Source: Elusimicrobiota bacterium (lineage in GTDB: Bacteria > Elusimicrobiota > UBA8919). From it: 64,000 nucleotides of DNA. The DNA lies in NCBI GenBank assembly GCA_028718185.1, contig JAQUMH010000001.1, forward strand, positions 31,186 through 95,185. The letters run 5' to 3'. The notes under the pieces were generated by a model. The model was not told the DNA's origin. It saw only the letters and a list, made by a program, of their open reading frames with translations, and searched no databases. Numbering within the stretch: the first letter of the stretch is position 1; the number at the start of each line of letters is the position of its first letter. Both the position numbers and the translations under genes were made by a program. Shown here one piece after another: positions 28,481 to 62,142 of the stretch.

Positions 28481-29651
28481 AAAATTCAGCCGGTCTCTTG
28501 CTCCTCAATCCAAAATAAAACTCAATATATTCAACAGTTCTTAAAGCAGCAAACCCATCACCATACGGATTTACACTTTTGGCAATTTTTTCATAATATT
28601 TTTTATTAATAATAAGCTTTGAAACTTCATTAAATATTTTATGTTCATCAGGTCCTACAATCTTTACGGTACCCGATTTAACTGCTTCAGGTCTTTCTGT
28701 CACATATCTTGTTACAAGTACGGGCTTACCCAAAGCAGGCGCTTCCTCCTGTAACCCCCCTGAATCCGTTAAAACCAGATATGATATCCTTAAAAGATTT
28801 GTAAAATCAAGATAGTTGAGCGGTTCAATAAGGTATACATTTTTTATCTTATTTAATAACTTATAAACCACTGCTTTTATATTCGGATTAGGATGTACAG
28901 GATAAATAATACTATAAGTAGGAAATCTATACGAAATCCGTTTTATTGCTTTACAAATATTTTCAATGGGTTTACCGAAATTCTCACGGCGATGTGCGGT
29001 AACTAGTATTAGTTTAGAGTTTAAAGTTGAGAGTTGAGAATTAAACAATTCTTTTAATATTTGATTTTGAAATTTATGCTTCTTTTTCAAAATCATATAT
29101 AGCGCATCTATAACCGTATTTCCGGTTATAAAAATATTTTTTGTATTTATGTTTTCTTTAACAAGTGCTCTTTTAGCAGTTAAAGTAGGACAGAAATGTA
29201 TATCACAGACTGCATCTGTTAACCGGCGATTAACCTCTTCCGGATAAGGGTTGAATTTATCATACGAACGAAGACCTGATTCAACATGCCCGATAGGAAT
29301 TTTTCTATAAAAAGAAGATATCGTGGATGCAAAAGTAGTTGTTGTATCACCATGAACAAGAATTAAATCCGGTTTTTCTGATATAAGAATTGGTTCTAAA
29401 CGGTTAAGCACAGTAGAAGTTATATGAAAAAGCGTTTGATTATCTGTCATTATATTCAAGTCATAATCAGGTTCTATTTCAAATGTTCTTAAAATATCGT
29501 CTAAAAGATACCTGTGCTGGGCAGTCACACATACCTTAACTTTAAATCTTTTAGAATTGGCTTTCAGCTGTTTTACAACAGGTGCCATTTTTACGGCTTC
29601 AGGTCTTGTTCCGAATATACACAATATTTTTTTCATAATATTAACACTCAC
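28458..29651 (-). CDS. wecB: UDP-N-acetylglucosamine 2-epimerase (non-hydrolysing)
   Basis: IFGTRPEAVKMAPV...LVHGDTTTT...HVESGLRS...AHRREN motifs. Confidence 0.9.
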   Translation of the reverse strand: MSVNIMKKILCIFGTRPEAVKMAPVVKQLKANSKRFKVKVCVTAQHRYLLDDILRTFEIEPDYDLNIMTDNQTLFHITSTVLNRLEPILISEKPDLILVHGDTTTTFASTISSFYRKIPIGHVESGLRSYDKFNPYPEEVNRRLTDAVCDIHFCPTLTAKRALVKENINTKNIFITGNTVIDALYMILKKKHKFQNQILKELFNSQLSTLNSKLILVTAHRRENFGKPIENICKAIKRISYRFPTYSIIYPVHPNPNIKAVVYKLLNKIKNVYLIEPLNYLDFTNLLRISYLVLTDSGGLQEEAPALGKPVLVTRYVTERPEAVKSGTVKIVGPDEHKIFNEVSKLIINKKYYEKIAKSVNPYGDGFAALRTVEYIEFYFGLRSKRPAEFYVRTKKI

Positions 29652-30532
29652 TTTTGTCTATATGTTTTAAAATATATCTTAGCAATTCTAATATCATCTT
29701 CAATTCTTTTAACAAGTTTTTCAACAGTAGGGAACTTTTCGTCATTTCTTATTTTTGAGATTAATTCTATAGTCAACTTCTTATTATAAAGTTTGTCTGA
29801 AAAGTTAATTATATATATTTCTATAGTCTTTTTATGCAATCCGAATGTAGGTCTTTTGCCTATGTATGCTATTGCCTGGTATTTTCTCTTGCCTACTTTG
29901 ACATTGGCTATAAAAATTCCTTCAGGCAACATTTTATTATTATTCACTTTTAAATTTGCTGTAGGAAACCCGAGTTTTGCTCCTAAACCCCAGCCTTTAA
30001 TAACATTACCCTCGAAATCATACCTTCTTCTTAGTAAATTATTTACACGCTCAATTTCCCCTGAAATCAACAATTCTTTTATGTTTGTAGATGAAATTAT
30101 TTTGCTTTCATACTTTACCGGTTTTACCACAAGCGTGTGAACCGCTTGTGGTTTTACTCCCATCGTATTTTCATAAAATTGTTTTATTGTATTTATATTA
30201 CCTTCTTTATTTTTACCAAATCTAAAGTTATATCCAACTACAATAGCGGAATAATTTTTAAGGTATTTCTTTAAAAAACCGACAGGTGAAAGGTTTTTAA
30301 CTTTTTGAAAATAAATAATCTTTACTGTTTTTATACCAATGGATTTTATAAGTTTTATTTTTTCCTTTAAGGTGGAAAGATTTCCATAATTATTTTTTGG
30401 AATATTATCAAAAGTTAATACAACGCTTCTTAGTTTTTTATTTTTAGCATATTCAACCACTGTTTTTAACATTCTTTGATGTCCTAAATGAACACCATCA
30501 AACATCCCTATAGTAACTATTTCTTTTTCCAT
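29648..30532 (-). CDS. ribF: Bifunctional riboflavin kinase / FMN adenylyltransferase
   Basis: IGMFDGVHLGHQ N-terminal FAD synthetase motif and C-terminal riboflavin kinase domain. Confidence 0.9.
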   Translation of the reverse strand: MEKEIVTIGMFDGVHLGHQRMLKTVVEYAKNKKLRSVVLTFDNIPKNNYGNLSTLKEKIKLIKSIGIKTVKIIYFQKVKNLSPVGFLKKYLKNYSAIVVGYNFRFGKNKEGNINTIKQFYENTMGVKPQAVHTLVVKPVKYESKIISSTNIKELLISGEIERVNNLLRRRYDFEGNVIKGWGLGAKLGFPTANLKVNNNKMLPEGIFIANVKVGKRKYQAIAYIGKRPTFGLHKKTIEIYIINFSDKLYNKKLTIELISKIRNDEKFPTVEKLVKRIEDDIRIAKIYFKTYRQK

Positions 30533-30645
30533 AAAACAGCTCTCTCTTTGCTTGAAAATACGAACTTATTACTAATATTAGCGTGATATTCGCGATATTT
30601 CTATTATTCGCATTTATTCGCGCGTATTAGCTTAAAAATAGGATA

Positions 30646-31278
30646 CTATAAACTATTTAAACTAATTGCTTCGTCAATTGAGTATTTCCCGATACCTTCT
30701 CTTATTAGCTGACTGACAACGGCACAAGTCTTAAGTCTTTCCCCAATATCTTCAGCTAATTTTCTTATATAAGTTCCTTTTGAACAAGTAACATTCATTA
30801 CAATTTCTTCTTCATTAAAATTCAAAAGCTTGATTTTGTAAATCTGAATCATCCTTGGTTTTATTTTTATATTTATTCCCGCTCTTGCATATTCATAAAG
30901 TTTCTTACCCTTATATTTTATCGCAGAATAGATATGAGGCACTTGTTTTATTTTACCTTCATATTTTTTTAAAACTGCTGATATTTTCTTCCTATCCAAC
31001 ACAGGCACGCGACATTTTTTTATTACCACACCTGCCAAATCCCCGGTATCTGTCTTAATACCCAACCTCATCTTTACAAAATATTTCTTTTTCATCTCCA
31101 TAAACTTGTTTGATTCTTTTGTAGCTTCATTAATTAAAACAATTAGCAATCCGGAGGCAAGCGGGTCAAGGGTTCCTGCATGTCCTATCTTCTTAGGATG
31201 AAGTTTTCTTTTAATTATCCTTATAACATCATATGACGTAATTCCTGACGGCTTATTTATTAAAAGAACATTTTCCAT
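30646..31278 (-). CDS. truB: tRNA pseudouridine(55) synthase
   Basis: GHAGTLDPLASGLL catalytic motif. Confidence 0.9.
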   Translation of the reverse strand: MENVLLINKPSGITSYDVIRIIKRKLHPKKIGHAGTLDPLASGLLIVLINEATKESNKFMEMKKKYFVKMRLGIKTDTGDLAGVVIKKCRVPVLDRKKISAVLKKYEGKIKQVPHIYSAIKYKGKKLYEYARAGINIKIKPRMIQIYKIKLLNFNEEEIVMNVTCSKGTYIRKLAEDIGERLKTCAVVSQLIREGIGKYSIDEAISLNSL

Positions 31279-31321
31279 TTAGTTATTCCAATTATGCAGT
31301 TTATTACAAGCGGTTTACTCG

Positions 31322-32332
31322 CTAATGATTTAATTCACTTTCAACATAACCAATAACAATGTCTATAACTTTATCCAAATTACCATTAATCGTACAACCG
31401 GAAGCATTTTTATGACCGCCACCACCGAACTTATTGGAAATTTTATTAACATCTATTTCCTTTGCAGAGCGAAAACTTACTTTTACTAAATTTTGTTTAT
31501 GCATTTCTTTAAAAAGTAACCATACTTGAACATTCGGAATCATTCCGGCATAATTAATAATTTCTTCCGTATCTTCAATTGTAGTTTTTGTTTTATTTAA
31601 ATCATCTTCCGTAATCGTTGTATATGCAATTCTGTTTGACCTACTCATTTTTATCTTAGTTAAGACAATGCCTAATAGATGAAGAGCATTAAGCGTTTTT
31701 GTTCCATAAATATGTTTATTAATTATATTAGTTTCAACACCGTATTTTAAAAGTTCAGAAGTTATAATATGTGATTGAGATGTAGTATTGGCATGCCTGA
31801 AATTATAAGTATCCGTAACTATTCCGGTATAAAGTAAAGTTGCCTCTTCTTTTGTTAAAGACATTTTTAAATATTTAAAAACATAATAAATCATTTCAGA
31901 AACTGATGAAGAAGTTGAGTCGAACCAGTTAATATCCGCCCACTCCTGTTGAAACAAGTGATGATCGATATTTATCGCTGTTTTTATATTTTTTTTTACA
32001 TCTATCATATTGCCAAAACGGGAAATTTCCGAACACTCCAAAAACACACCTACATCGAATTTTTTATCAACTTTTTGAGTAACTACTATTTTTTCCGAAT
32101 AGGGCAGAAACTTCAGAAAAGACGGGGTCGGATCATAATTGTATAAAAAAACGTCTTTTTTTAAACGTTTTAAAATCGAATACATAACAAGTGCAGCACC
32201 GATAGTATCGCCATCCGGTTTTTGGTGACCTGTTATAAAAAAACTTTTATTTTTTGGATTTTTTAGAACTTTTTTTATATCGGCGAGGTTTTTTAAAAAC
32301 TGTTTCGGTACGTTCAAGATTTTCCTCCTCAA
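31322..32332 (-). CDS. nrnA: DHH-family phosphoesterase (NrnA-like oligoribonuclease / pAp phosphatase)
   Basis: DGDTIGA, DHH and GGGHKNASG (DHHA1) motifs; overlaps rbfA 3' end so true start may be downstream or non-ATG. Confidence 0.8.
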   Translation of the reverse strand: MRRKILNVPKQFLKNLADIKKVLKNPKNKSFFITGHQKPDGDTIGAALVMYSILKRLKKDVFLYNYDPTPSFLKFLPYSEKIVVTQKVDKKFDVGVFLECSEISRFGNMIDVKKNIKTAINIDHHLFQQEWADINWFDSTSSSVSEMIYYVFKYLKMSLTKEEATLLYTGIVTDTYNFRHANTTSQSHIITSELLKYGVETNIINKHIYGTKTLNALHLLGIVLTKIKMSRSNRIAYTTITEDDLNKTKTTIEDTEEIINYAGMIPNVQVWLLFKEMHKQNLVKVSFRSAKEIDVNKISNKFGGGGHKNASGCTINGNLDKVIDIVIGYVESELNH

Positions 32333-32672
32333 TTTGATTCAAAAGCTCAAAAACACGCGATGCACGGGCAGGTGTGTTGTCATACTCAAATCTGATTACC
32401 GGGGTATATTTTATATGAAGGTCTTGTCCTATTTGCTTATTAATATACGCTCTGTAATTTTCAAGAACTATAGCTGTTCTTTTTCTTTCATCTTCATTTC
32501 CTAAAACACTGTAGGAAACCGTGGCATTCCTTAAATCAGGGGTTACTTTTACTTCAGTTATTGTAGTAAAACCCATCTTATCGCGCAAATCCCTAATTAT
32601 AACTTCAGAGATCCTTGCTTTTAATATTTCAGAGATTCTTGCACATCTTAATTCATTCATATTTCTTACCAT
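32247..32672 (-). CDS. rbfA: Ribosome-binding factor A
   Basis: RbfA-like KH fold sequence (RISEVIIRDLRDK...TITEVKVTPDLRNATVSYSV). Confidence 0.85.
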   Translation of the reverse strand: MVRNMNELRCARISEILKARISEVIIRDLRDKMGFTTITEVKVTPDLRNATVSYSVLGNEDERKRTAIVLENYRAYINKQIGQDLHIKYTPVIRFEYDNTPARASRVFELLNQIEEENLERTETVFKKPRRYKKSSKKSKK

Positions 32673-32681
32673 CCTTATAAA

Positions 32682-33065
32682 TCAATTTATATTTAACATC
32701 AAACAAACATTATGTATGACTTTCAGCCCGTTATCAAAACAGAATTTCAATGCGGCTTCATTTTCCGCGCCCGGCTGCATCCATACATATTTTATATTTT
32801 TTCCTTTACAATCCTTGACTATTTGTTCGGTAACTTTCGGCGGAGTTACTATGTCTACAGCATCAATAGGATACGAAATATCATTTATAGTAGGATAACA
32901 TTTAATATTTTCCACTTCCGACAAAGCCGGATTTACAGGAAAAGCATTGTAACCTTTTTCTATAAGTTTTAAAAATATCTTATATGCTATCTTGTCTTTT
33001 GAACAAAAAGAACCAATAACTGCGATGTTTTTCTGTTCCAAATATTCTTTAATTATATTTTCCAT
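32682..33065 (-). CDS. CoA-binding domain protein (YccU-like)
   Basis: 127 aa; IAVIGSFCSKDKIAYKIFLKLIEKGYNAFPVNP resembles CoA-binding domain. Confidence 0.55.
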   Translation of the reverse strand: MENIIKEYLEQKNIAVIGSFCSKDKIAYKIFLKLIEKGYNAFPVNPALSEVENIKCYPTINDISYPIDAVDIVTPPKVTEQIVKDCKGKNIKYVWMQPGAENEAALKFCFDNGLKVIHNVCLMLNIN

Positions 33066-33637
33066 TAATAATTTTCTGATAATACTTCATAATAGCTTTG
33101 TGGATGTTTGCAGGCCGGACATTCCTTCGGCGATTCTTTGCCTTCATAAATATAACCGCAGTTGCGGCAGTGCCATTTTACGATTTTATCCTTTTTAAAT
33201 AAACTATTCCCTTGCAGCTGTTTAGCAAGAATTCGATATCTTTCCTCATGAAATTTTTCCACTTTAGCTATCTGATTAAATGATTCAGCAATATTATTAA
33301 ATCCCTCAGCTTTTGCTGTCTTTTCAAAATCCGAATAAATAGTTGTCCATTCCATATTTTCACCTACAGCGGCATGAAGTAAATTTTCCTCTGTTGATTT
33401 GATAATACCCGCGGGATAACTCGCTGTAATCTCCACATCGCCACCTGATAGATATTTAAAAAATATCTTAGCGTGTTCTTTTTCATTTTCTGCTGTTTCA
33501 ATAAAAAGAGATGAAATTTGTTCGTAACCTTCTTTTTTTGCAGCAGATGCAAAATAAGTATACCTATTTCTTGCCTGCGATTCACCTGCAAATGCCTTCA
33601 AAAGATTTTTTTCTGTTTTACTTCCTTTTAATTCCAT
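33065..33637 (-). CDS. rbr: Rubrerythrin
   Basis: Ferritin-like diiron domain with E..H motifs plus C-terminal rubredoxin-like CRNCGY...CPACKHP. Confidence 0.9.
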
Positions 33638-33878
33638 TCTTATTCTCCTTTAAAATATCTTTAACTTTATCCCATCTTTCTGCTCCGATACACTCTCTTG
33701 CAGACTTGCACCATTCGATACAAGACGGGATTTTATCTTTAAAAACAAACTTTTTGCATTTTGGACACTTGACCCGAAACTCATCAGAAAATATTTCAAC
33801 TTCCTGAGCACAATAAGAACATTTATATATTCCTACTTTTAGATTTCTTGTCGATTGACCGGGACACTTTTCAAACAT
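33618..33878 (-). CDS. Small cysteine-rich zinc-ribbon-like protein
   Basis: 86 aa with CPG, CSYC, CPKC and further Cys pairs. Confidence 0.4.
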
Positions 33879-33888
33879 AGCCTTTTAA

Positions 33889-34407
33889 TTACTTTTTTAT
33901 TTTACTATCTCTGTAAAACTTGTACAATAACGGTTCATCAGAAGCGACAACATCACCATTAATAACATCCGCAACAATTATCATATGTGTGCCACAATCA
34001 ATAAACATCTCTGATATAACTTTACATTCCATCCAGGCAAGAATATCGTCTAAAATAGGTGCTTTTACAGTAGAGAGGTTATATTTAACATTTTCAAATT
34101 TATTAATATCGCGCCCGGATTTAAGCCCAAAAAGAGAAACCAATTCTAACTGGCTCTGTTTTAATATATTTATCACAAAAACACCGCTTTCTTTAATAAG
34201 TTCATAAGTATAATTTTTCTTATTTATTCCAATGGCTACCCGTAAAGGCACTGACGTTATCTGAAAAACAGTGTTGCCTATTTGACCATTTATGCGACCG
34301 TCGCTACTTACTGATGTTATCACATAAAGCCCATAAGATATTTTATTTACTGCTTCGATTATTTTTTTTCTATTTTGTTCCATATTTATAAATTCATCCA
34401 GCTCCAT
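33889..34407 (-). CDS. Flavin reductase-like protein (FMN-binding split barrel)
   Basis: 172 aa; GLYVITSVSSDGRINGQIGNTVFQITSVPLRVAIGINK typical of flavin reductase/flavoredoxin family. Confidence 0.65.
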   Translation of the reverse strand: MELDEFINMEQNRKKIIEAVNKISYGLYVITSVSSDGRINGQIGNTVFQITSVPLRVAIGINKKNYTYELIKESGVFVINILKQSQLELVSLFGLKSGRDINKFENVKYNLSTVKAPILDDILAWMECKVISEMFIDCGTHMIIVADVINGDVVASDEPLLYKFYRDSKIKK

Positions 34408-34904: not shown

Positions 34905-34920
34905 AATACCTCCATATGCC

Positions 34921-35934: not shown

Positions 35935-36218
35935 ATTCCTACCAGCTTATCAAGATGTTTTTTTGCCGTTTTATGGTCCGGCTTTATTTCAAGGGTTTTT
36001 TCAAACATTTTCTTTGCACCATCAATATCATTCTTAGCTTCCTTGACAATCCCCATGTTAAAATATGCATCCGCACTTTTAGGATTTATTTTTATAACCT
36101 TTTCAAATTCCGAAATTGCCTCATCATATTTTTCACTCAAAAAATAAAACTTGCCCATCTCAATCAAATCAATTTCATTTTTTGAATCAATTTCTAAACT
36201 TGAATCTTTATCTTTCAT
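35931..36218 (-). CDS. Small TPR-repeat protein
   Basis: 95 aa with two to three TPR-like units (AISEFEKVIKINPKSADAYFNMG...). Confidence 0.55.
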   Translation of the reverse strand: MKDKDSSLEIDSKNEIDLIEMGKFYFLSEKYDEAISEFEKVIKINPKSADAYFNMGIVKEAKNDIDGAKKMFEKTLEIKPDHKTAKKHLDKLVGI

Positions 36219-38286: not shown

Positions 38287-38292
38287 CTTAGA

Positions 38293-38655: not shown

Positions 38656-38747
38656 GATAAATTCAGTGATTAAGCAATTAAGTGATTAAGCGTTTAAGTA
38701 AAAACTAAACTACTTATCTGCTTATCTGCTTTTTATCCCCGCCTCCT

Positions 38748-49594: not shown

Positions 49595-49960
49595 CTACTG
49601 TACGAAGTACTTAGTAAACGGATTCGCAAATAAAAGTATTATACTTATAAAAAGCACGTATAAAACCAACGATTCAATAAATGCAAGACCTATAATCATT
49701 ACTAATTGCAATTGCCCGCCTGCTTCAGGTTGCCTCGCTATTCCTTCCAATGCTTTTTTGATTGCAACCGACTGCATACTTGCGCCGACAGCAGCAACAA
49801 CTACAAGACCCATTGCCGCTACAACAACTGATGTCTTAAAAAAATCAGCCGCCCCCTGATTTAATACAACCGCTACCTTATCTTCAGCAAAAACAACGCT
49901 ACTCAATAACATAAGAACACAAGAACACAAGAACATAATAACACAAGAACGCCTTTTCAT
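49595..49960 (-). CDS. atpE: ATP synthase Fo subunit c (with unusually long N-terminal extension as drawn)
   Basis: GIARQPEA loop and two TM helices; first about 35 residues are hydrophobic and encoded by ACAAGAAC tandem repeats, true start uncertain. Confidence 0.8.
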   Translation of the reverse strand: MKRRSCVIMFLCSCVLMLLSSVVFAEDKVAVVLNQGAADFFKTSVVVAAMGLVVVAAVGASMQSVAIKKALEGIARQPEAGGQLQLVMIIGLAFIESLVLYVLFISIILLFANPFTKYFVQ

Positions 49961-51250: not shown

Positions 51251-52234
51251 TTACCTTATGAGACGACAGAGGTCTCCACGAGACGGTTTTGAACCGCTTA
51301 AAACCTTTGCAGTAGAACCATTGTCGCCAAAATAATCAGCAACCGCTACTTCACCGACTTTTTCTTCTGTTTTACCGATTACCATCCCGGTATCAGGACT
51401 TCTAATCTCTTTTCCCTGGTGATAGACTACTAATTTTGTTCCTATTTTCAGATTAGATTCTTGTCCTGCATCAAGATAGATATTATTTTCATCAACTTCG
51501 GCAACTCTGCATGACCAGGGGCGAGCATTAACCTGAAAAACTATGTTGTCAACAAATTTTGCAATAGCTGCTCTCAACGCCTCACCTTCAAGCGTTTCAT
51601 CATAACCACCTTTTGTCCCCATTCCTAAAAACGAGCCTTTGGAAGATTTTGCTACACCCTTACCCGAATCAATATAAATTATTCTTCCGGTTTCTACTTC
51701 AATTACTCTTATATCAACAGTACATTCTGCAACCTGTTGCTTTGATTGGGTAATAAGATAATCCGAACCTCCGGTTTTAACCCCGAATTGTGAAATAGAA
51801 CCAACAACAATAGCATCAAGTCCTAAAATTTTTCCCATCTGGACAGCGGTGTTTGCATCAGTCATACCTGTTGTCTGAAGTTTTTGTTCTTCCATAACCT
51901 TATCTAATTTTGACCTTTCAATTAGAATAAACTTTTTTGACTTGCCAAGTTCAGTCAGAAGAACATCAGAAGCTGCAGTTCCAAGTCGCCTTTGACCATA
52001 TGCGGTTTTGTTTTCAAACTCAACAACTGATATCTTCTTCTTAGGTGGAATAAATTCATCTTTTGGTTTCTCAATAGTTATCGCCTCTTTTTTCCTCACC
52101 GATGTTGACGGTGCACAAGATGTTAGAAACAAGAGACAAGAGACTAGAGGCAAGAGACAAGATGCAAGATGCAAGATGCAAGAAGACTTTGCCCGCTGAC
52201 TACTGTGTGCTGAATACTGAATGCTGACTTTCAT
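51251..52234 (-). CDS. CsgG-family lipoprotein
   Basis: ISVVEFENKTAYG...LLTELGKSKKFILIERSKLDKVMEEQ resembles CsgG/curli-transport-component-like lipoproteins; N-terminus encoded by tandem repeats. Confidence 0.55.
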   Translation of the reverse strand: MKVSIQYSAHSSQRAKSSCILHLASCLLPLVSCLLFLTSCAPSTSVRKKEAITIEKPKDEFIPPKKKISVVEFENKTAYGQRRLGTAASDVLLTELGKSKKFILIERSKLDKVMEEQKLQTTGMTDANTAVQMGKILGLDAIVVGSISQFGVKTGGSDYLITQSKQQVAECTVDIRVIEVETGRIIYIDSGKGVAKSSKGSFLGMGTKGGYDETLEGEALRAAIAKFVDNIVFQVNARPWSCRVAEVDENNIYLDAGQESNLKIGTKLVVYHQGKEIRSPDTGMVIGKTEEKVGEVAVADYFGDNGSTAKVLSGSKPSRGDLCRLIR

Positions 52235-52236: not shown

Positions 52237-52899
52237 CTACCTCCCTGGAAGCGTCTGAATAGAAATGTTTACTACTCCATTCGCTTCTTCTTTTAAAGGA
52301 GAACGCAACGCCTTATCAACTGTTTTCTCAATAAGCTGTGAAGCGAATGCTTTCCCTATATCTTTAAATTCAAATTTTTTATTCGATATCTTTCTTTCAT
52401 CTTCCCATAATAACTGTTCTTTCTTTACATCAAACAACTTGAAATTGGCTTGAACAGTTCTTGCATAATAAAAACCAAGCGTTGTATACTTAAATTCAAT
52501 AACATCGCCATAAACAAGCCCGTCAACATTTAGTTTTTCGCCAAGCTCTTTTATTGTCGCTGTAGGCAACTGTCCTGCGTCGGTAATCCCTAATTCCCTA
52601 AGTTCTGAATCTATTATTTCAAACGATATAGTGTCATAACCACGATTTATTAATCTCTTATTAAAAAGGTATCTTAATAAAACCGGTGCATCTAAATCTA
52701 TTGATTGGTTAGAAAACGGCAATACTGCAACTTTTGCAGGAGGCACATAATTTTCAATTAAATATTTAGCCTTAGGCGCACAACCCCAAAAACCAGCAGA
52801 CAGCACACAAAATACAGCAAACAGTAGTAAAACCCACTTCTGAATCCTGAATTCTGAGTGCTGAATTCTGAGTACTGAATCATCAATTCTGACTTCCAC
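52237..52899 (-). CDS. Lipoprotein (hypothetical, partner of CsgG-like gene)
   Basis: Signal peptide with lipobox FWGC; VAVLPFSNQS segment; first about 20 codons derive from CTGAATTCTGAGT-type repeats. Confidence 0.45.
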   Translation of the reverse strand: MEVRIDDSVLRIQHSEFRIQKWVLLLFAVFCVLSAGFWGCAPKAKYLIENYVPPAKVAVLPFSNQSIDLDAPVLLRYLFNKRLINRGYDTISFEIIDSELRELGITDAGQLPTATIKELGEKLNVDGLVYGDVIEFKYTTLGFYYARTVQANFKLFDVKKEQLLWEDERKISNKKFEFKDIGKAFASQLIEKTVDKALRSPLKEEANGVVNISIQTLPGR

Positions 52900-53507: not shown

Positions 53508-53509
53508 TT

Positions 53510-55237
53510 TTATGCTAGACTCGTTATAATTTCATCCAATGCTGCGCCTGCGGGAACCATCGGAAAAACATTCTCTTCTTCCTCAACTAAAAAATCCATA
53601 ACTACCGTTTTTTCTATCTTTAACGCTTTTATAAGAGTATTTTCAACATCTTCCTTTTTTGTAACTCTTATACCAACAGCGCCATATGCTTCGGCAAGTT
53701 TTACAAAATCAGGTATCATCAATGGTGACCTCTTAAAAGAAAGTTCTGAAGCAAGACACCCGTTTGGTTTTGCTAAACATACAGCAGAATATCTTTTCTT
53801 ATAAAACATTTCCTGCCATTGACGAACCATTCCCAAACAATTGTTATTTAAAATAACAATTTTCACGTTTATATTATTCAGGACTGCGGTTGCAAGCTCC
53901 TGTATATTCATTTGTATAGAACCGTCGCCTGCAATATCAATAACCGTTTTTTTAGGATTAGCTATTTTAGCTCCGATAGCCGCAGGAAAACCATAGCCCA
54001 TCGTCCCAAGCCCGCCGCTTGACAAAAAATGCCGGGGATACTTTGGTTTATAGAACTGTGCAGACCACATCTGGTTCTGACCCACTTCCGTAACAACAAT
54101 CGCTTCGCCTTTCGTTATCTCTGAAATTTTATCGATAATATATTGCGGACGAAGTTTATTATCTTTTTTATATGAAAATGGATTTGCTTTTTGCCATTCT
54201 GATATTTTTTTAAGCCAATCTTTATTGTTTTTCTTATTCACATACTTTAAAAGTTCAGTAATAACATTTTTTGCATCACCGACAATAGGTATATCAACCA
54301 TAACATTTTTAGAAATTGAGGTTGGGTCGATATCAATATGGATTATTTTGGCTTTTGGTGCAAAAGCAGAAAGCTTTCCCGTTACCCTGTCATCAAATCT
54401 TGCACCGATTGCTATTATTAAATCGCAATTCTGGAATGCGTGGTTAGCTGCATAATTTCCATGCATGCCCGGCATATAAAGATTCAATGGATGATCCGGA
54501 GGAAAACATCCTATTGCCATTAGAGTTGTAGTAACCGGCGTATGTATTTTTTCAGCAAGTTTCAAAAGTTCGGTTGAAGCATCTGATGAAACTATTCCGC
54601 CGCCTACATACAACAATGGCTGTTTAGCAGAGTTTATCATATCTGCAACTTTCTTTATTTGTCCGATATGACCCGAATAAACCGGTTTATATGAACGTAT
54701 ATCTACTTTTTCAGGCCAGACAAACTCTGTAGTTGCTCTTTGAATATCAGCGGGAATATCTACAAGAACCGGTCCCGGTCTGCCGGTTTTTGCAATATAA
54801 AACGCTTCACGTATTGTTCTTGCTAAATCTTTAACATCTTTTACTAGAAAATTATGTTTAGTAACAGGTCTGGTTATACCTGTTGTATCAGCTTCTTGAA
54901 AAGCATCATTTCCTATAAGTGTTGTTACTACCTGTCCGGTAAATGCAACAACCGGAATTGAATCCATGTTTGCTGTTGCAAGCGCAGTAGTTAGATTTGC
55001 TGCTCCGGGCCCGCTAGTTGCAATACAAACACCAACATCACCTGTAGATCTGGCATACCCGTCAGCCATATGCCCGGCACCCTGTTCATGTCGTGTCAAA
55101 ACAAACTTTATTTTATCCCTTGCGTCAAATATTTTATCAAAAATCGGAAGCACCTGTCCACCCGGAATTCCAAATAACACTTTGACATTTTCTTTTAAAA
55201 GACATTCAATAAATATTTCAGCCCCGGTTTTTATCAT
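53510..55237 (-). CDS. ilvB: Acetolactate synthase large subunit
   Basis: TPP-enzyme motifs, 575 aa. Confidence 0.95.
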   Translation of the reverse strand: MIKTGAEIFIECLLKENVKVLFGIPGGQVLPIFDKIFDARDKIKFVLTRHEQGAGHMADGYARSTGDVGVCIATSGPGAANLTTALATANMDSIPVVAFTGQVVTTLIGNDAFQEADTTGITRPVTKHNFLVKDVKDLARTIREAFYIAKTGRPGPVLVDIPADIQRATTEFVWPEKVDIRSYKPVYSGHIGQIKKVADMINSAKQPLLYVGGGIVSSDASTELLKLAEKIHTPVTTTLMAIGCFPPDHPLNLYMPGMHGNYAANHAFQNCDLIIAIGARFDDRVTGKLSAFAPKAKIIHIDIDPTSISKNVMVDIPIVGDAKNVITELLKYVNKKNNKDWLKKISEWQKANPFSYKKDNKLRPQYIIDKISEITKGEAIVVTEVGQNQMWSAQFYKPKYPRHFLSSGGLGTMGYGFPAAIGAKIANPKKTVIDIAGDGSIQMNIQELATAVLNNINVKIVILNNNCLGMVRQWQEMFYKKRYSAVCLAKPNGCLASELSFKRSPLMIPDFVKLAEAYGAVGIRVTKKEDVENTLIKALKIEKTVVMDFLVEEEENVFPMVPAGAALDEIITSLA

Positions 55238-55357
55238 AATTTAATTCTCCTATAACATTAAATATAAAGTTATTGGGTTATAGCGTTATAGAGTTATAGG
55301 GTTTTAGTGTCATAGGATTGCAACTCTACAAACTCTATAACACTATAAACTCTAAAA

Positions 55358-57010
55358 CTACTTCAATATTGCACCCAAATCTGCAGAAGTTACCAGCTTG
55401 GCGTATCTTGAAAGCCAACCGGTTTTTACTTTTGATTCAAAAGGTTTTCTCCTTGCTAAACGAAGTTTTACTTCTACATCAGTAAGACGGACATTTATCG
55501 TTCTATTCGGTATATCTATTGTAATTTCTTCTCCATCTTTTATAATTCCAATAGGACCGCCATCTACTGCTTCCGGTGCAATATGACCTATACACGGACC
55601 GCGAGTCCCGCCAGAAAATCTACCATCAGTAATTAAAGCAACTGACTCTGAAAGTCCCATGCCGACAATTGCTGAAGTCGGAGAAAGCATTTCTCTCATA
55701 CCAGGCCCGCCTTTGGGTCCCTCATTCCTGATGACTATTACTTCTCCTTTCTTAATTCTTTTAAGCGTAATTAAATTCATAGCCGATTCTTCGGACTCAC
55801 AAACCCTTGCTTTTCCTGAAAATTTTAACATTTTTGAACTAACAGCTGATTGTTTTACAACACAACCATTAGGAGCGATATTACCAAAAAGTATTGCTAT
55901 ACCTCCGGTTTGGCTGTAAGGTTTGTTCAAAGGTCTAATAACTTTGTCATCGCCAACTTTTCCAATTTTGGAAATTTCCGAAATTCTTTTCCCGGATATA
56001 GTCGGATTATCTTTTAATTTACCCTTTAAGACAGAAATAACTGCCGGAATTCCACCGGCATTATCAAGGTCTTCCATGTAATAATCTCCTGCCGGTTCAA
56101 GTTTGACTATATTTGGCGTCTTTTTAGATATTTCATCAAAAAGTGAAAGCGGAAGTTTTATATTACACTCATTTGCTATTGCAGGAAGATGCAAAACTGT
56201 ATTAGTTGAACCGCCTAATGCCATATCCATAACTATTGCATTATAAAATGCTTCGCTTGTCATTATTCTTTTTGGTAAAATTTGCTTATTAACAATTTCA
56301 ACAATCCTCTGACCTGATTCGTATGCAATCCGTCTCTTTTTACTTGATACAGCAGGAGCGGTAGCACATCCGGGAAGAGACATTCCCATAGTTTCCGTTA
56401 AACATGCCATTGTATTTGCAGTATAAAGTCCCTGACAACTTCCTGAACCGGGACATGCAGCCATTTCGAGTTCTTCAAGTTCAGTTGCATCCATCTTCTT
56501 TGCACGGAAAAGTCCGACCGCTTCAAATGAATCTCTAACAAGTGAACGCCTCTTGCCATTGTAAAAACCGGTCAACATTGGACCTGCAGTAACTACTATT
56601 GAAGGAATATTCAAACGTCCCGCTGCCATAAGCATTCCGGGCGTGATTTTATCACAATTAGTCAGCAAAATTAAACCGTCAAGCTTATGAGCATTTGCTA
56701 CTGATTCAACACAATCAGATATAAGTTCTCTTGAGGGCAATGAATAACACATTCCCGAGTGTCCCATAGCAATTCCATCGCATATAGCAGGAACACCGAA
56801 AATAAAAGGTGTACCGCCGGCGGATTCTACTCCCCGTTCTATAAATCTTTCTAAATCTCTCATTCCAAAATGACCCGGAACCAGATCGGAGTAACTTGAA
56901 GCTATTCCGATAAATGGCTTCTGTACCGACGCTTTAGAAATTCCTGTTGCATAAATAAGACACCTGTTTGGAGCTCTTTCAACACCTTTCTTCGCATCAT
57001 CGCTTCTCAT
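55358..57010 (-). CDS. ilvD: Dihydroxy-acid dehydratase
   Basis: IlvD/EDD family signatures (CDGIAMGH, Fe-S Cys ligands). Confidence 0.95.
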
Positions 57011-57077
57011 TTCCTTCCTCCATTCACTTCGCTTACACGCAAATATTCGCGTGTATTCACGCTCTTTATATTTGCGT

Positions 57078-58634
57078 TTATTCGCGGTCCTTTAAAAGCT
57101 TATATTCTATTGCATCAACTAATGCCTGCCAAGACGCCTCAATTATGTTTTCTGAAACACCAACAGTATTCCATTCATCTTTACCGTCAGTGGATTGTAT
57201 TAAAACCCTTACTTTCGCTTCAGTTCCGCCGGACGGATTTATAATCCTCACCTTGAAATCGGAAAGACGAACATTTCTCAGTTGCGGATAAAAATTTTCC
57301 AATGCCTTTCTTAATGCATTATCAAGTGCATTTACGGGACCATCGCCTTCCGCAGCAGTAAGTTCTTCTACACCTTTTACAAAAACCTTAATTGTCGCTT
57401 CTGATTTGATATGTCCCATTCTATCTTTTTCAACTGAAACCCTGAAACCGCCTAAACTAAAAAATGTTTTATGCTTACCAATATTTTTCTTTACTAAAAC
57501 CTCAAATGAACCCTCAGCACCTTCATAAAGATATCCTTTCTTTTCATGGTCTTTTACAATTTGCAAAATCTTTTTTGTCGTATCGCTGTCTTTTTCAAAA
57601 TCTATATTTAACTCTTTGGACTTAAGTAAAATATTGGCGCGACCGGAAAGTTCTGATATTAAAATTCTTCTTTGATTACCGACAATAGACGGATCAATAT
57701 GTTCATATGTTGACGACTTTTTAGAAATTGCGGAAACATGAATACCACCCTTGTGTGCAAAAGCCGAGTAACCCGTATACGGCTGCTTGTCGTTGGGAAT
57801 GATATTGGCAACTTCTGATATATAACGCGATGTCTCTGTAAGCAATTTGAGTTTTTGGTCAGAAATACAGTCAATTCCAACCTTAAGTTTGAGATTAGCA
57901 ATCACTGCTGACAGATTTGCATTTCCACATCTCTCACCCCATCCATTGAGCGTCCCCTGCACAATAACGCAGCCCGATTGTATAGCAACTATTGAATTTG
58001 CGACAGCACATCCGGAATCGTTATGCGCATGAATACCTAATGGAACAGAAACATGGTTTTTTATTTCTGAGATTATTTCTATAATTTGATTAGGAAGCAT
58101 TCCCCCGTTAGTATCACAAAGAGAAATATTATCTGCATCAGAAGCAGCTTCAAGCGTCTTTAATGCATAATCACTATTTGAAATATAACCGTCAAAAAAA
58201 TGTTCGGCATCATAAATAACTTCCAGACCCTTTGACTTCAAAAATTTTATGGATGAATAAATCATATCCAAATTTTTTTCAAGACTTGTATTTAAAGCAT
58301 ATTTTACATGTAAATCCCATGTTTTTCCAAATATACAGGCACAATCCGGCTTAATTTTTACTATTGCCAGAAGATTCTCATCTTTTTCCGGCTTATTATC
58401 TTTGTGCCTGGTAGAACCAAAAGCAGTAATCTTTGCATTTTTTAATTTAAGCTTTTTAACTTTTTTAAAAAATTCAATATCTTTTGGGTTTGAATACGGC
58501 CAACCACCTTCGATATAATGTATTCCAATATTGTCCAGTGCTACTGCAATCTTCAATTTATCCTCAACAGTAAGAGAAATCCCCTCTCCCTGAGTTCCAT
58601 CTCTTAACGTCGTATCAAAAACCTTTATCTCCAT
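57078..58634 (-). CDS. cimA: 2-isopropylmalate / (R)-citramalate synthase family enzyme (CimA-like)
   Basis: [11 protein letters not shown]-terminal motif, HxH metal site, LeuA-dimerisation C-terminus; long-form length about 520 aa. Confidence 0.8.
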
Positions 58635-58653
58635 ATTTTAACACCTCTTGAAT

Positions 58654-59880
58654 TTATTTTATCAGACTATCTGCTAAATTAAATTTTCTATGTAACGACT
58701 TAACTGCTCTCTCCGTATCCCTGTTTGATATGATACAGGAAATCTTAATCTCTGAAGTTGAAATCATCTGAATATTTATACCTTCATCAAAAAATATTTT
58801 AAACATCTTTGCAGCAATACCGGGATGACTTCTCATCCCTATCCCGATTATCGATACTTTAGATACATTCTCATCGGCAATAACAGGACCACCGCCAAGT
58901 TTCTTAGATATGTTTTTCAACAATGGGACAGCATTTTTTAGCTCGTTTTTTGAAACAGTAAATGAAATATCATTAGTTTTTTCTCTTGCTGCCGACTGAA
59001 TTATCATATCAACATTTATGTTTTTTTTTGCAAGCGCCCCGAATATTTTTGCAGCAATTCCGGGTTTATCAGGAACATCCGTTACTGAAAGTTTTGCTTC
59101 GTTTTTATCGTAGGCAACTCCTGATACAACAACATCCTCCATATAAGGAACCTCCTTTGTTATAATAGTACCTTTTTCATTGGAAAAAGTGGAACGAACA
59201 TGTATATCCACGTTATATTTTTTTGCAACTTCAATTGAACGCGCCATCATAACCTGACTGCCACTACCGGCATATTCCAGCATTTCGTCGTATGAAATTT
59301 TATCAATTTTTCTTGCATCATCAACAATTCGTGGATCCGTTGTATAAACCCCTTTTACATCCGTATAAATTTCACATTCTTTTGCTTTAAGCGCTGCTGC
59401 TAATGCAACAGCTGTTAAATCACTTCCACCACGACCAAGAGTAGTAATATCTTCATTTGAGTTTAATCCCTGGAAACCGGCTACTATTACTATCTTATTT
59501 TTTTTAAGTTCTTCTATTATTTTCTTTGGCCGGATTCTTTTTATCCTTGCCTTTGTATGAACATTATCAACATGAATACCCGCCTGTGGACCGGTCAGAG
59601 AAATCGCATCTAACCCGTCAGATTTTATAGCCATTGAAAGAAGGGCAATTGACTGCATTTCACCGGTTGCAAGAAGCATATCCATTTCCCTCGGGTCAGG
59701 TGACTCTGTTATACTTTTTGCTTTTTCTATTAAATCATCAGTCATATCACCGGGCGCAGAAACAACCACAACAATCCTGTGTTTTTTTGCTTTTGCAGCC
59801 ACGCGACCGGCAACATTTTTTATTTTCTCAGGGTTAGAAACCGACGACCCCCCAAATTTCATTACAATAAGATTATCCAT
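58654..59880 (-). CDS. lysC: Aspartate kinase
   Basis: VMKFGGSSV, kinase core and two C-terminal ACT domains. Confidence 0.9.
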   Translation of the reverse strand: MDNLIVMKFGGSSVSNPEKIKNVAGRVAAKAKKHRIVVVVSAPGDMTDDLIEKAKSITESPDPREMDMLLATGEMQSIALLSMAIKSDGLDAISLTGPQAGIHVDNVHTKARIKRIRPKKIIEELKKNKIVIVAGFQGLNSNEDITTLGRGGSDLTAVALAAALKAKECEIYTDVKGVYTTDPRIVDDARKIDKISYDEMLEYAGSGSQVMMARSIEVAKKYNVDIHVRSTFSNEKGTIITKEVPYMEDVVVSGVAYDKNEAKLSVTDVPDKPGIAAKIFGALAKKNINVDMIIQSAAREKTNDISFTVSKNELKNAVPLLKNISKKLGGGPVIADENVSKVSIIGIGMRSHPGIAAKMFKIFFDEGINIQMISTSEIKISCIISNRDTERAVKSLHRKFNLADSLIK

Positions 59881-59899
59881 AAATACACCTAATAACGGC

Positions 59900-59933
59900 G
59901 TTCACGTGTTCACGTGTTGATATGTTCACGTGT
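59900..59933 (-). promoter_or_regulatory. Three tandem TTCACGTG units upstream of lysC
   Basis: TTCACGTG at 59901-59908, 59909-59916 and 59925-59932, 20-50 nt upstream of the lysC start codon; each contains the CACGTG palindrome. Confidence 0.35.
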
Positions 59934-60009
59934 AAATTGCTAATAGAAAGTTAAAAATTTTATTAAGACTTTTAAAGAGCATATAATCCTTACAAATCAA
60001 AGCGAAGTA

Positions 60010-60100
60010 AGAAATTTCTGAAGAGCCTGAATTTGCGACTTATTTTTTCCAGGAGCAAATGTTAGAGCGACCACAAGGGAGCGTCTCAAAGAAATTTACT
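60010..60100 (-). repeat. Intercistronic repeat element, copy B1 (thrB-lysC spacer)
   Basis: About 85 bp nearly identical to B2 (GAAATTTCTGAAGAGCCTGAATTTGCGACTTATTTTTTCCAGGAGCAAATGTTAGAGCGACCACAAGGGAGCGTCTC); terminus overlaps thrB stop. Confidence 0.65.
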
Positions 60101-61015
60101 TACGAGCACACCTTTATTATCAAAATCACAAACGATATATTTTGACTTAATTCTATGTCCTGCAAACGCTCTTTGCATTGATTTCCCGATGCCAACTGAT
60201 AGACGCTGACTACTGAGCGATAATATAGTAGAACCACTACCGGAAATACAAACACCGTAAGCACCTGATTTTTTGGCAGAACTGAAAACTTCTTCCATTC
60301 CCGGAATTAGTTTTTTTCTATACGGCTGATGTAGTCTGTCTTCCATAGCTGTCCCTAGTAGATTATATTTTTTTTGAATGATTGCCGATAAAAAAAATCC
60401 GACTCTGCTTGAATTAAAAACTGCATCTTCACGACTTATCATTTTTGGTAAAATTTTTCTTGCCTTATCTGTTGAAACTTCAAAATCAGGAATACAAAGA
60501 ACTGCCTTTAAATCACCTGGCATTTTTATCTTTGTACATTTTATATCTTTTCCATTATAATTGCAAACACAAAGTCCGCCAAAAAGCGAAGGAACTACAT
60601 TATCGGGATGCCCTTCAAGTTTCGTGACCATCTGTATAATTTCATTATCTGAAAGTTTACTACCGCAAATTTTATTTGCTGCAATAAATCCGCCAAGTCG
60701 TGCGGCAGCCGAACTTCCCAATCCCCGTGCAAGAGGAATATGATTAATAAACCGTATATGTAATGTGTTATGTGTAATATGTAATATATCGAAAACCTTT
60801 TTCATCGCCTGCCAAACAATATTTTTTTCATCTCTTGGAAGTTTCTCTTCCCCTTCACCTTCAATATCTATTTTTAGACCTCGGACATTGGACTTCGGAC
60901 ATTGGACGATATTTACTTCTATCTCATTATAAAGTTTTAATGCAGCCCCGAGCACATCATATCCGGCACCAAAATTTGATGTCGTAGCCGGAATTTTAAT
61001 TTTTATTTTGTTCAT
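60086..61015 (-). CDS. thrB: Homoserine kinase
   Basis: GHMP kinase motif [11 protein letters not shown]. Confidence 0.85.
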
Positions 61016-62142
61016 AAACCTATTGTTTTTACAATTTTTTTCAAATCCGGCTCCATAATTTTAGGCTTTATTGCAGATTTTATCGCTCTATCCGGATCTT
61101 TAAGTCCATGTCCCGTAAGAGTGCAAACGATTGTAGTTTGTAGTTTTTGGTTTGCAGTTCGTGAACCCATAAACGCATGAACTCGTGAACGATATTTTAT
61201 AAGCCCGGCTACCGATGCAGCAGATGCCGGCTCTACAAAAACTCCTTCAAGAGATGCAAGTAACTTGTATGCTTTTAGAATTTCAGTATCTGTAACTATA
61301 TCAATAACTCCCTTTGATTCATCCCTCGCTTCTTCTGCTTTCTTCCAACTAGCAGGATTTCCTATTTTTATTGCAGTCGCTATCGTTTTAGGATTTTTTA
61401 TTGGTTTTCCTTTAACAATCGGTGCAGCACCCGCTGCCTGAAAACCCATCATGTGAGGCAGTTTATTAGTTAATAGTTCATTGTTCATAGTTTTTTGATT
61501 TTTCTCTGAACTCTGAACCCTGAACTCTGAACTGTATTCCTTATATCCCTTCCAATATGCTGTTATATTTCCTGCATTGCCAACTGGGATAAAATGGTAA
61601 TTAGGCGCTTTACCTAAAAAATCAATTATCTCAAAAGCAGCAGTCTTTTGTCCCTCAATACGATAAGGATTTAATGAATTTACAAGCGTGATGGGATATT
61701 TTTCTGTAATTTCGAGAACTATTTTTAACGCATCATCAAAATTGCCTTTTAACGCAATAACCTTTGCTCCATGCATCATCGATTGTGAAAGTTTACCGAG
61801 CGCAATAGAACCGTCCGGTATTATAACAACACATTTCAATCCTGCTCTTGCCGAATATGCAGCAGCAGATGCAGCAGTATTACCTGTTGATGCACAAATC
61901 ACCGCTTTGCTACCCTCTTCAACAGCTTTAGAAATAGCCATCGTCATTCCACGGTCCTTAAATGAACCGGTTGGATTTGTACCTTCAAACTTAAGATATA
62001 TATCAACGTTTATATTAAGATATTTTTCTAAATTTTTTGCTCTCAAAAGCGGCGTATTGCCTTCGTAAAGAGTGACAACAGGCATCTTGTCCATTACCGG
62101 CAAATATTTTCGATACCTTTCAATTATACCTTTATAAACCAT
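61012..62142 (-). CDS. thrC: Threonine synthase
   Basis: PLP-dependent fold with [14 protein letters not shown] lysine motif. Confidence 0.9.

Follow-up and report, generated by a model that had tools for sequence, protein, structure and literature searches.

A 64-kb stretch of an Elusimicrobiota genome (contig JAQUMH010000001.1, positions 31,186 to 95,185; 64,000 nt, hereafter the window) carries many short tandem arrays of 7- or 8-nt units. They are located both between genes and, in frame, within the conserved biosynthetic genes thrC, thrB and wecB. The units are diverse, the arrays turn over among close relatives, and two arrays in thrC stand in inverted orientation and can fold into a hairpin. 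We give about an even chance to the explanation that the arrays are heptanucleotide simple-sequence repeats (SSRs), of the type described as short tandemly repeated repetitive (STRR) sequences or long SSRs, which would be made by slippage or template switching and filtered by selection for reading frame and stop codons.

In this genome the array survey covered the window, and the relatives were sampled only around thrC. Every array-density figure below should be read on this basis. About 1 Mb of thrC neighbourhoods gave 132 arrays for the counts of copy number and inverted partners and 134 for the count of coding location. The window has a G+C content of 30-39%, and its minus strand carries nearly all the long open reading frames (ORFs). 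Its ThrC is 100% identical to P0001, a protein encoded on a 970-kb contig of an Elusimicrobia metagenome-assembled genome (MAG). The three host genes could be securely assigned by their similarity to proteins in the PDB:

28458-29651, minus strand: wecB (UDP-GlcNAc 2-epimerase), E = 1.7e-122 against PDB 5enz
60086-61015, minus strand: thrB (homoserine kinase), E = 1e-44 against PDB 5wat
61012-62142, minus strand: thrC (threonine synthase), E = 2.7e-142 against PDB 2zsj

Period, copy number and location of the arrays

Tandem Repeats Finder (TRF) returned 16 rows of period 7 or 8 with at least 3.5 copies in the window, which correspond to 15 non-overlapping arrays of at least three copies. In 100 third-order Markov shuffles, the mean number of such rows was 0.4 and the maximum was 3. 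A lag scan for four-copy arrays found four at lag 7 and one at lag 8, compared with none at lags 4-6 and 9-15 and none in 30 shuffles. The absence of four-copy arrays at lags 6, 9, 12 and 15, which the reading frame would favour, indicates that the period stems from the process that makes the DNA and not from selection at the protein level. A sequence-only reading of this DNA had pointed to repeats in wecB, thrC and, at two places, thrB. All four are present where it had placed them, well above the chance expectation (16 against 0.4). Its units of 6, 8 or 12 nt had to be revised: each of these arrays has a period of 7, the double 12-mer of thrB being a period of 14 (2 x 7) and the 8-mer of thrC being the 7-nt unit CTCTGAA. 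The likeness it saw to intergenic repeats was borne out, with the same period and the same copy number.

The arrays are not evenly distributed. The first 28 kb of the window has none, and 13 of the 15 are concentrated in 49.9-62.3 kb. They are imperfect (75-91% matches by TRF) and are built from more than ten distinct units with only loose common cores, namely GTTCA in the arrays at 59900, 61159, 61467, 61504 and 62153, and TCAGNAY in those at 52115 and 52838. A single recognition core, GAAC/GTTC, was considered and rejected. It is 3.3-fold enriched in the units, yet ACAC, ACTC and AGTG are enriched equally or more, and therefore no single motif accounts for the arrays. Among the thrC neighbourhoods, the copy number has its mode at four to five units (78 of 132 arrays), and arrays of about this size span 28-35 bp. 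Half of the arrays (67/134) lie outside long ORFs, although such sequence makes up 13% of the total (p = 1e-25). Even at this enrichment, an unusually high proportion is coding. Period-7 arrays were inside ORFs in 60 of 102 cases, compared with 7 of 32 for period 8 (Fisher p = 4.5e-4), the other 25 period-8 arrays being outside.

An inverted partner, defined as a reverse-complement array at most 90 nt away with at least 75% identity, was found for 32 of the 132 arrays. By comparison, a probe with the unit reversed gave 3 and a probe with the unit complemented without reversal gave 11. Scanning for inverted repeats by a simple ungapped method gave a noisy result, with 17 clusters compared with 5 in shuffles. 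Inside genes, the arrays sit in loops or N-terminal leader peptides and encode peptides with a 7-residue period. Unit composition follows the context: the enzyme loops have hydrophilic units and the signal peptide hydrophobic ones, a match that would be expected from selection on which arrays can persist. Thirteen of 50 internal indels relative to orthologues, nearly all in thrC, adjoin DNA with lag-7 or lag-8 periodicity, compared with 2.1% of background positions.

An inverted-array hairpin inside thrC

Arrays were found at two sites in thrC. Site 1 has three parts:

61504-61533, minus strand: left arm (TRF period 7, 4.3 copies, unit CTCTGAA, 91% matches)
61491-61503, minus strand: A-rich spacer forming the hairpin loop, AAAAATCAAAAAA
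61460-61490, minus strand: right arm (TRF 61467-61492, period 7, 3.7 copies; inverted-repeat scan 61467-61534)

On the sense strand the left arm reads AGTTCAG AGTTCAG GGTTCAG AGTTCAG AG. The right arm, CTATGAA CAATGAA CTATTAA CTAATAA ACT, is its approximate reverse complement. Together, the two arms and the spacer form an insertion of 16 aa relative to PDB homologues (residues 209-224). In an AlphaFold2 model of the window ThrC (mean predicted local distance difference test score, pLDDT, of 75), these residues are coil with pLDDT below 50, and site 2 has about 58. Such predicted values are consistent with exposed loops. The right arm lies beyond what the sequence-only reading had reported, as do thrC site 2 (61131-61190) and N-terminal arrays at 49904-49950, 52115-52227 and 52838-52896.

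A hairpin of 70-90 nt with this architecture occurs at the same codon position in eight species, with differing units. At the DNA level, the layout in every array-bearing species examined is a unit in four copies, an A-rich spacer and an approximate reverse complement in four copies. The units are as follows:

Window: left AGTTCAG, right CTATGAA
L081: left AGTTCAG, right CTACGAA
L089: left AGTTCAG, right CTAYGAA
L091: left AGCAGAG, right CTCTACG
L086: left AGTGTAA, right ACCTTAC
L087: left AGTTGAT, right CTCAACT
L088: left GAGATAC, right CTCACAT
L084: left AAAGTTA, right TACCTTTC

The predicted structure consists of helices of 5-6 bp with small internal loops between them. Compared with dinucleotide shuffles, site 1 gave z-scores of -3.4 to -5.9 in seven of the eight species and -0.9 in L084. 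The folding energy was -19.7 kcal/mol (z -3.5) in the window and -27 kcal/mol in L081, and the right arm of the window is decaying. Between L081 and L091 the helix AGUUC/GAACU is changed to AGAGC/GCUCU. Every unit of both arms is affected, UU becoming AG on the left and the matching AA becoming CU on the right, and the 2-nt internal loop (AG/AC) is unchanged. L081 and L091 share their start phase, A-rich spacer and right-arm core. The window and L089 share these features too (start phase TAC/TAT AGT, right-arm core CTACG), and the site-1 elements of the four look like descendants of one insertion. A left arm pairs with its own right arm at 18 of 24 positions, compared with 15.1 of 24 across species. 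As this gap is moderate, the argument for covariation rests on the fold z-scores and on the comparison of L081 with L091.

The coding frame sets a limit on arm complementarity: a 7-nt array passes through all three frames, and TGA is present in the exact complement of AGTTCAG. Exactly where TGA would fall in frame, the right arm breaks its consensus, with CTATTAA in the window and CTACGAA in L089. Similarly, the third left unit of L086 is AGTGACA, which avoids an in-frame TAA (GTG TAA).

Direct arrays in thrC, thrB and wecB

The other arrays within the three host genes are direct repeats:

61131-61158, minus strand: thrC site 2 heptamer array (TRF period 7, 4.1 copies; residues ~328-338)
61159-61190, minus strand: thrC site 2 octamer array (seen by direct reading; TRF at score 30 does not report it)
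60877-60907, minus strand: thrB array A (period 7, 4.4 copies; residues 37-47)
60753-60787, minus strand: thrB array B (period 7, 4.6 copies; residues 76-87)
29011-29039, minus strand: wecB heptamer array (TRF period 7, 4.1 copies, unit AGTTGAG; lag-7 scan)

They have no inverted partner and are unstructured, with fold z-scores between +1.4 and -1.7 (thrB array A +1.2, thrB array B +1.4, wecB -1.7, the last being a solitary array).

At thrC site 2, the sense strand of the heptamer array reads ACTGCAA ACCAAAA ACTACAA ACTACAA, and the octamer array consists of GTTCACGA GTTCATGC GTTTATGG GTTCACGA, that is, GTTCAYGN in four copies. The protein is about 9 aa longer here than PDB homologues (residues ~325-335). 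At least three near-perfect lag-7 copies were found in the site 2 loop in 17 of 89 ThrC loci, representing several phyla. The corresponding counts in the same 89 loci were 2 at lag 6, 3 at lag 8 and 0 at lag 9. In L088, site 2 carries a G+C-rich palindrome that resembles those at 21783-21839 in the window, which are described below.

In thrB, the sense strand of array A is GTCCAAT GTCCGAA GTCCAAT GTCCGAG GTC and that of array B is ATATTAC ATATTAC ACATAAC ACATTAC ATATACG. Array A is an insertion of 6 aa relative to PDB homologues and of 3 aa relative to close relatives. Array B aligns to homologues free of gaps and extends into the beta-strand preceding the GHMP motif. Five thrB relatives have arrays at the same two positions with differing units. 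These are GTCCGAA, GGTCAAA, TCAGAAT or AAAGTTA at position A, and ACACTTT x4 (L086) or ACAAATT x5 (L088) at position B.

The wecB array reads TCTCAAC TCTCAAC TTTAAAC TCTAAAC on the sense strand and encodes NSQLSTLNSKL (residues 205-214). Its loop is 7 aa longer than in 5enz and equal in length to 3dzc and 1vgv, and it matches the E. coli and V. cholerae length. Among relatives (alignment A2) the loop is mostly 9-10 aa, with scrambled sequence and 7-aa periods. From these alignments, the repeat evidently overwrote a variable loop and did not lengthen it. Another periodic segment was seen in WecB of the relatives at residues ~26-41 (A2 columns 26-41), where 7-aa-period peptides such as FKLQSSEFRVK, LRVHSSEFRAK and FGVRSSEFGVK precede the conserved KVCVTAQHR strand. 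They are of the peptide type encoded by AGTTCAG-type arrays in thrC, and the window's own wecB is weakly periodic there.

The repeats had been proposed to be insertions relative to typical family members. This holds for thrC site 1 (16 aa relative to PDB homologues) and thrB array A, and fails for thrB array B, with its gap-free alignment, and for wecB, with its near-constant loop length. The orthologue alignments of ThrC (A1), WecB (A2) and thrB agreed with the same reading: these stretches are hypervariable and specific to lineages, and are not features conserved across the family.

Other arrays in the window

The remaining arrays lie between genes or at the 5' ends of genes:

62153-62244, minus strand: intergenic arrays upstream of thrC (TRF period 47, 2.0 copies; period 8, 3.6 and 4.4 copies)
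59900-59933, minus strand: intergenic octamer array, ACGTGAAC x4 (TRF period 8, 4.2 copies)
55263-55360, no strand assigned: hairpin-forming octamer arrays of GTTATAGG and AACTCTAT type in inverted orientation (TRF, inverted-repeat scan, fold z -5.1)
52838-52896, minus strand: heptamer array TCAGNAY x8, N-terminal extension of a GNA1162-like lipoprotein (TRF period 7, 8.4 copies)
52115-52227, minus strand: heptamer arrays in the N-terminus of a CsgG-like protein (TRF period 7/14/21; Pfam CsgG)
49904-49950, minus strand: octamer array TGTTCTTG x6, N-terminal extension of an ATP synthase c subunit ORF (TRF period 8, 5.9 copies)
38660-38731, no strand assigned: intergenic pair of octamer arrays, roughly inverted (TRF; fold z -1.9)

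The stretch at 62153-62244 comprises two 47-nt units with four octamers (TGAACAYR) in each, and the array at 59900-59933 lies about 20 nt upstream of aspartate kinase's start codon. These two share an octamer, which reads ACGTGAAC or ACATGAAC on the sense strand and appears in opposite orientation inside thrC at 61159-61190. Local copying could account for this, as could an operator or leader shared among the threonine genes. The spacers corresponding to 59900 and 62153 hold different units in relatives. The hairpin at 55263-55360 falls mostly within the gap between ORFs 53510-55237 and 55358-57010. The arrays at 52115-52227 encode a leader and lipoprotein signal peptide (CILHLAS CLLPLVS CLLFLTS C). 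In the ATP synthase ORF, Pfam ATP-synt_C matches residues 48-109, and AAGGAGG stands upstream of the ATG.

Turnover among relatives and spread over phyla

The ThrC comparison set comprised 25 relatives at 68-85% identity (alignment A1). Their lengths range from 343 to 396 aa, with nearly all of the difference confined to the two sites, where the number of extra residues varies between 0 and about 40. The inserts show 7-aa periods, e.g. EIRDRRYEIRDDS and NYELRTTNYE. Six of these proteins (P0002, P0003, P0009, P0013, P0015 and P0018) are 93-95% identical when both sites are masked. Among them, site 1 is empty (WKTRPK) in P0013, P0015 and P0018, and the others carry three unrelated inserts. Alignment of the empty and filled sites revealed no terminal inverted repeats and no target-site duplication.

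A degenerate flank-plus-array scan of metagenomes found no strain of the window's species and returned only L089 and L090, which represent one species at 78% ThrC identity. In three near-identical assembly pairs there were no indels or copy-number differences within arrays, and the arrays are identical across the independent assemblies L082/L083 and L084/L085. Over 9.3 kb, L089 and L090 share 99.9% identity without any indel, but about 100 nt directly upstream of the thrC ATG are wholly different between them. These segments (L089 6581-6691 and L090 3316-3408) are differing hairpins with sharp boundaries that end 2 nt before the ATG. One strain has inverted AATTAAA/TTAATTT heptamers and the other has inverted GTTATAGG/AACTCTAY octamers. 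The L090 cassette aligns with the hairpin at 55263-55360 of the window, at another locus in another species, and this was the sole cross-locus family found. The exchange and the match together indicate that array hairpins can be replaced as units and that their families can cross loci and species.

Array density in other phyla is patchy. A Nitrospirota MAG has 10 arrays in 8.7 kb, a Desantisbacteria MAG has 8, an Endomicrobia MAG has 6, and some Omnitrophota are high. The array-rich loci, which often have inverted pairs, are L009 (Nitrospirota), L013 (Desantisbacteria), L032 (Endomicrobia) and L010, L061 and L007 (Omnitrophota). Several of these distant lineages have a heptamer array in the ThrC site 2 loop, e.g. 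ACCGATT x5, TCGTGCG x4.6 and AACGATA x4.7. A protein search with (SSEFRVQ)x6 returned more than 100 proteins. Nearly all are 40-74 aa long and lack a Pfam domain, and many bear the label hypothetical. They have the look of false gene predictions across AGTTCAG-type arrays on environmental contigs.

Origin of the arrays

In the explanation to which we gave an even chance, copying that is blind to the reading frame would create and homogenise the arrays in a 7- or 8-nt register. The candidate processes are replication slippage or dislocation and template switching, the latter including copying between the arms of an inverted pair and between nearby arrays. Within genes, selection would then keep the arrays in permissive loops or leader peptides, hold the net length change to a multiple of three and keep the arrays free of stops in all three frames passed through. 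The role of selection in determining which in-gene arrays persist is largely established. The outcome would be 7-residue peptide periods, presumably without function, inside otherwise nearly invariant enzymes. ThrC site 1 is a special case, in which the hairpin architecture lasts and the unit sequence drifts in concert in both arms. The overwriting without length change in thrB array B and wecB would fit templated dislocation in a 7-nt register and not simple insertion. In addition, the inverted partners and the cores shared by neighbouring arrays seem to point to template switching or local copying.

Several observations weigh against this explanation. Slippage alone does not explain the inverted partner arrays (32/132 against 3 and 11), the narrow mode of four to five copies, or the cassette swap upstream of the thrC ATG in L089 and L090. 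The presence of the GTTATAGG/AACTCTAT hairpin family at a second locus looks like import or mobility, and selection for pairing would be an equally good explanation of the compensated double change that separates L081 from L091. Four plus four units have been retained in the three species sharing the thrC hairpin, which implies that slippage is slow there. No generating enzyme was identified in the 64 kb of this genome or around thrC in the relatives. The sequence-only reading had suggested an active repeat-generating process. The turnover among close relatives supports this, but in this genome it is unproven, given the imperfect arrays and the constant 4+4 units of the thrC hairpin.

[quoted passage not shown] Such cassettes would insert or be replaced at permissive sites, including in frame within genes. 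The unrelated, sharply bounded inserts of L089 and L090 (AATTAAA/TTAATTT and GTTATAGG/AACTCTAT) in 99.9% identical flanks are what this would produce. The same is true of the alignment of the L090 insert with window 55263-55360 in another species, and of a ThrC site 1 that is empty or filled among proteins 93-95% identical elsewhere. The RPEs, in-frame palindromic elements of housekeeping genes, provide a precedent (PMC10969869). However, the arrays have no common consensus, with units differing almost everywhere, and the empty and filled junctions lack terminal inverted repeats and target-site duplications. The phase, spacer and CTACG core shared by L081, L091, the window and L089 argue for descent in place. 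Moreover, thrB array B and the wecB array leave the length unchanged, and no transposase was seen near the arrays.

Distinctly unlikely, in our view, is the explanation that selection maintains the hairpins, and perhaps the direct arrays too, as cis-elements acting, for example, in mRNA processing, stability, pausing or polarity, or as periodic protein-binding sites. Their location within genes would then serve a function and would not be just tolerated. It would account for the folding of ThrC site 1 beyond shuffles in seven of the eight array-bearing species (z -3.4 to -5.9), for an architecture that stays constant while the units change, and for the compensated change between L081 and L091, which affects all units and keeps the 2-nt internal loop. 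Arrays also lie directly upstream of start codons, as reported for the repeats of Beggiatoaceae and Nostoc, for which a function in translation has been put forward (PMC4679880; bioRxiv 10.1101/2022.06.06.494920). Nevertheless, the insert is absent from the close relatives P0013, P0015 and P0018, the right arm in the window is decaying (-19.7 against -27 kcal/mol in L081), and the fold of L084 is on a par with shuffles (z -0.9). A species' own arms are only moderately more complementary than arms compared across species (18 against 15.1 of 24), the solitary thrB and wecB arrays lack structure, as does thrC site 2 (z +1.4 to -1.7), and no Rfam family matches. A more speculative version, to which we give similarly little credence, is that a dedicated process across Elusimicrobia, Omnitrophota, Nitrospirota and Desantisbacteria writes periodic hairpins that are recognised as cis-elements and are not neutral slippage products. 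It would write inverted 7-8-nt arrays with about four units per arm and helices of 5-6 bp, also into essential enzymes at hot spots such as ThrC. If true, this would explain the four-unit mode, the compensatory changes in two arms and the cassette swap between 99.9% identical strains. Very improbable is phase variation, in which the arrays would act as contingency loci, genes being turned on and off by the frameshift that results when a 7-nt unit is added or removed. The unit length is not a multiple of three, and the arrays at the 5' ends or leaders of two lipoprotein genes (52115-52227 and 52838-52896) have the classic layout. In contrast, thrC, thrB and wecB are biosynthetic, and a frameshift would merely inactivate the enzyme; the arrays are short and imperfect, and three near-identical assembly pairs have no copy-number differences.

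Chance, AT-rich composition or an assembly artefact would come to mind in a sequence of 30-39% G+C, as low-complexity sequence is common in such genomes. The Markov shuffles (16 arrays against 0.4), the lag scan, with no four-copy arrays beyond lags 7 and 8, and the independent assemblies ruled this out, leaving it a negligible probability. Sequencing reads far exceed the arrays in length, L082/L083 and L084/L085 carry identical arrays, and the reading frames are intact. An origin from a diversity-generating retroelement was also rejected, with no template-repeat/variable-repeat architecture and no adenine-specific pattern of variation.

Comparison with known repeat systems

According to the passages cited here, STRR and long-SSR sequences have been surveyed in cyanobacteria, Beggiatoaceae, Xanthomonas and Burkholderia (Mazel 1990, Mrazek 2007 via PMC4679880, PMC4692102). 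Heptanucleotides are given there as the commonest long SSR in many bacteria, with polymerase slippage as the proposed cause (Mrazek 2007 via PMC4679880). Non-triplet tandem repeats are described as under-represented in coding sequence (PMC4692102; Mrazek 2007 via PMC4679880). In the accounts cited, published heptamer repeats are mostly intergenic, often just before start codons, and of unsettled function (PMC4679880; PMC4692102; bioRxiv 10.1101/2022.06.06.494920). The arrays described here resemble this class in their 7-nt unit, short length, intergenic enrichment and patchy phylogenetic distribution. Their units stand head to tail (5-11 nt in the class, typically 7) and run longer than expected by chance. 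The class is described as having many arrays per genome, and 15 were counted in the 64 kb here, 13 of them in 49.9-62.3 kb. However, STRR1-3 are a few unit sequences that recur genome-wide, whereas the units of the window are very diverse. About half of the arrays here are inside ORFs, conserved enzymes included, and many form inverted pairs. We found no mention of Elusimicrobia, Omnitrophota and the other host lineages in the STRR and long-SSR literature consulted. The GGGNATC repeats are reported to prefer about four units (PMC4692102), and G-quadruplex formation has been proposed for those of Xanthomonas and Nostoc. As the units here are not G-rich, a G-quadruplex cannot explain their four-unit mode.

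The TAACTGA repeats of marine Beggiatoaceae, some cyanobacteria and Bacteroidetes (MacGregor 2015, PMC4679880) are also heptamer arrays of 2-6 copies, often directly upstream of start codons without a clear Shine-Dalgarno sequence, with occasional copies in ORFs read as 7-aa repeats and inter-strain indels in 7-nt steps (PMC4679880). They differ in being a single-unit system, whose copies in ORFs are rare and located at protein ends or in hypothetical proteins, with one indirect repeat (PMC4679880). No match to the TAACTGA unit was found here, with up to two mismatches allowed. The RPEs and intragenic MITEs likewise place hairpin DNA in frame in unrelated housekeeping genes at positions compatible with the fold (PMC10969869), and in-frame insertion at permissive sites was found here at thrC site 1 and thrB array A. 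However, RPEs are about 150 bp long with a conserved family sequence and peptide and no tandem short units (PMC10969869), whereas the inserts here are 30-90 bp, have no conserved consensus and differ in unit between species at one site. REP and REPIN sequences are extragenic, conserved palindromes of 20-40 nt accompanied by a REP-associated tyrosine transposase (RAYT); the hairpins here consist of tandem units without conserved sequence, and some are intragenic. The tetra- and heptanucleotide contingency loci of Haemophilus also have non-triplet tandem units in or just upstream of coding regions (PMC2651432). By contrast, the hosts here are biosynthetic enzymes, and the arrays are short, imperfect and without copy-number variation in near-identical assemblies. 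The present case differs in its lineage, in how varied the units are, in the large proportion of arrays inside conserved enzymes, in the recurrent ThrC hot spots across phyla, and in the inverted-array hairpin inside a gene, with its concerted and compensated change.

Other features of the window and of the thrC neighbourhood

Scans of the window for terminators, promoters, Rfam families and tRNAs gave nothing bearing on the arrays. The Rfam covariance models matched none of the arrays, and the sole match in the window was a 6S RNA (RF00013, 64 bits) at 14007-14162 on the minus strand. No tRNA genes were found in the 64 kb. A YhcG/DUF1016 nuclease gene (ORF 20993-22132, minus strand), whose N-terminal domain is about 32 aa beyond the Pfam profile length, contains two neighbouring G+C-rich near-perfect palindromes at 21783-21839. 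The palindromes, with stems AATTGGGCAACAG/CTGTTGCCCAATT and AAGCCAACAG/CTGTTGGCTT, encode repeated QQ(A/P)V(A/G)Q motifs. A stretch rich in inverted repeats at 57026-57088 (CGCAAATATTCGCGTG / CACGC...TTTGCG) fills the spacer between ORFs 55358-57010 and 57078-58634 and extends a few bases into both. It is not built as a 7- or 8-nt array.

The thrC and thrB genes of the window have 4 nt in common at their junction. The thrC-thrB junction of relatives, and in L086 also the junction of thrB with aspartate kinase, contains inserted DNA methyltransferase and restriction-modification genes (N6_N4_Mtase, BanI-like endonuclease, NmeDI_C). The stretches concerned are 11554-13302 in L081, 11125-15404 and 17066-19044 in L086, 11204-14069 in L088, 3463-5339 in L092 and 11022-11985 in L082. 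The thrC-thrB junction looks like a hot spot for the insertion of restriction-modification genes.

Implications

ThrC owes most of its length variation to arrays of 7-nt units, which its site 2 loop carries in several phyla. For annotation, such segments inflate the apparent variation in protein length and generate spurious small ORFs. As they change much faster than the surrounding genes, the arrays might serve as a marker for discriminating strains in metagenomes. They are also a test case for why 7 nt and about four copies form the preferred register of bacterial long SSRs. The in-gene hairpin, with its concerted and compensated change of units, would be of real interest if selection, and not mutation, maintains it. 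More generally, the arrays offer a natural map of the places at which conserved enzymes tolerate arbitrary peptides with a 7-residue period.

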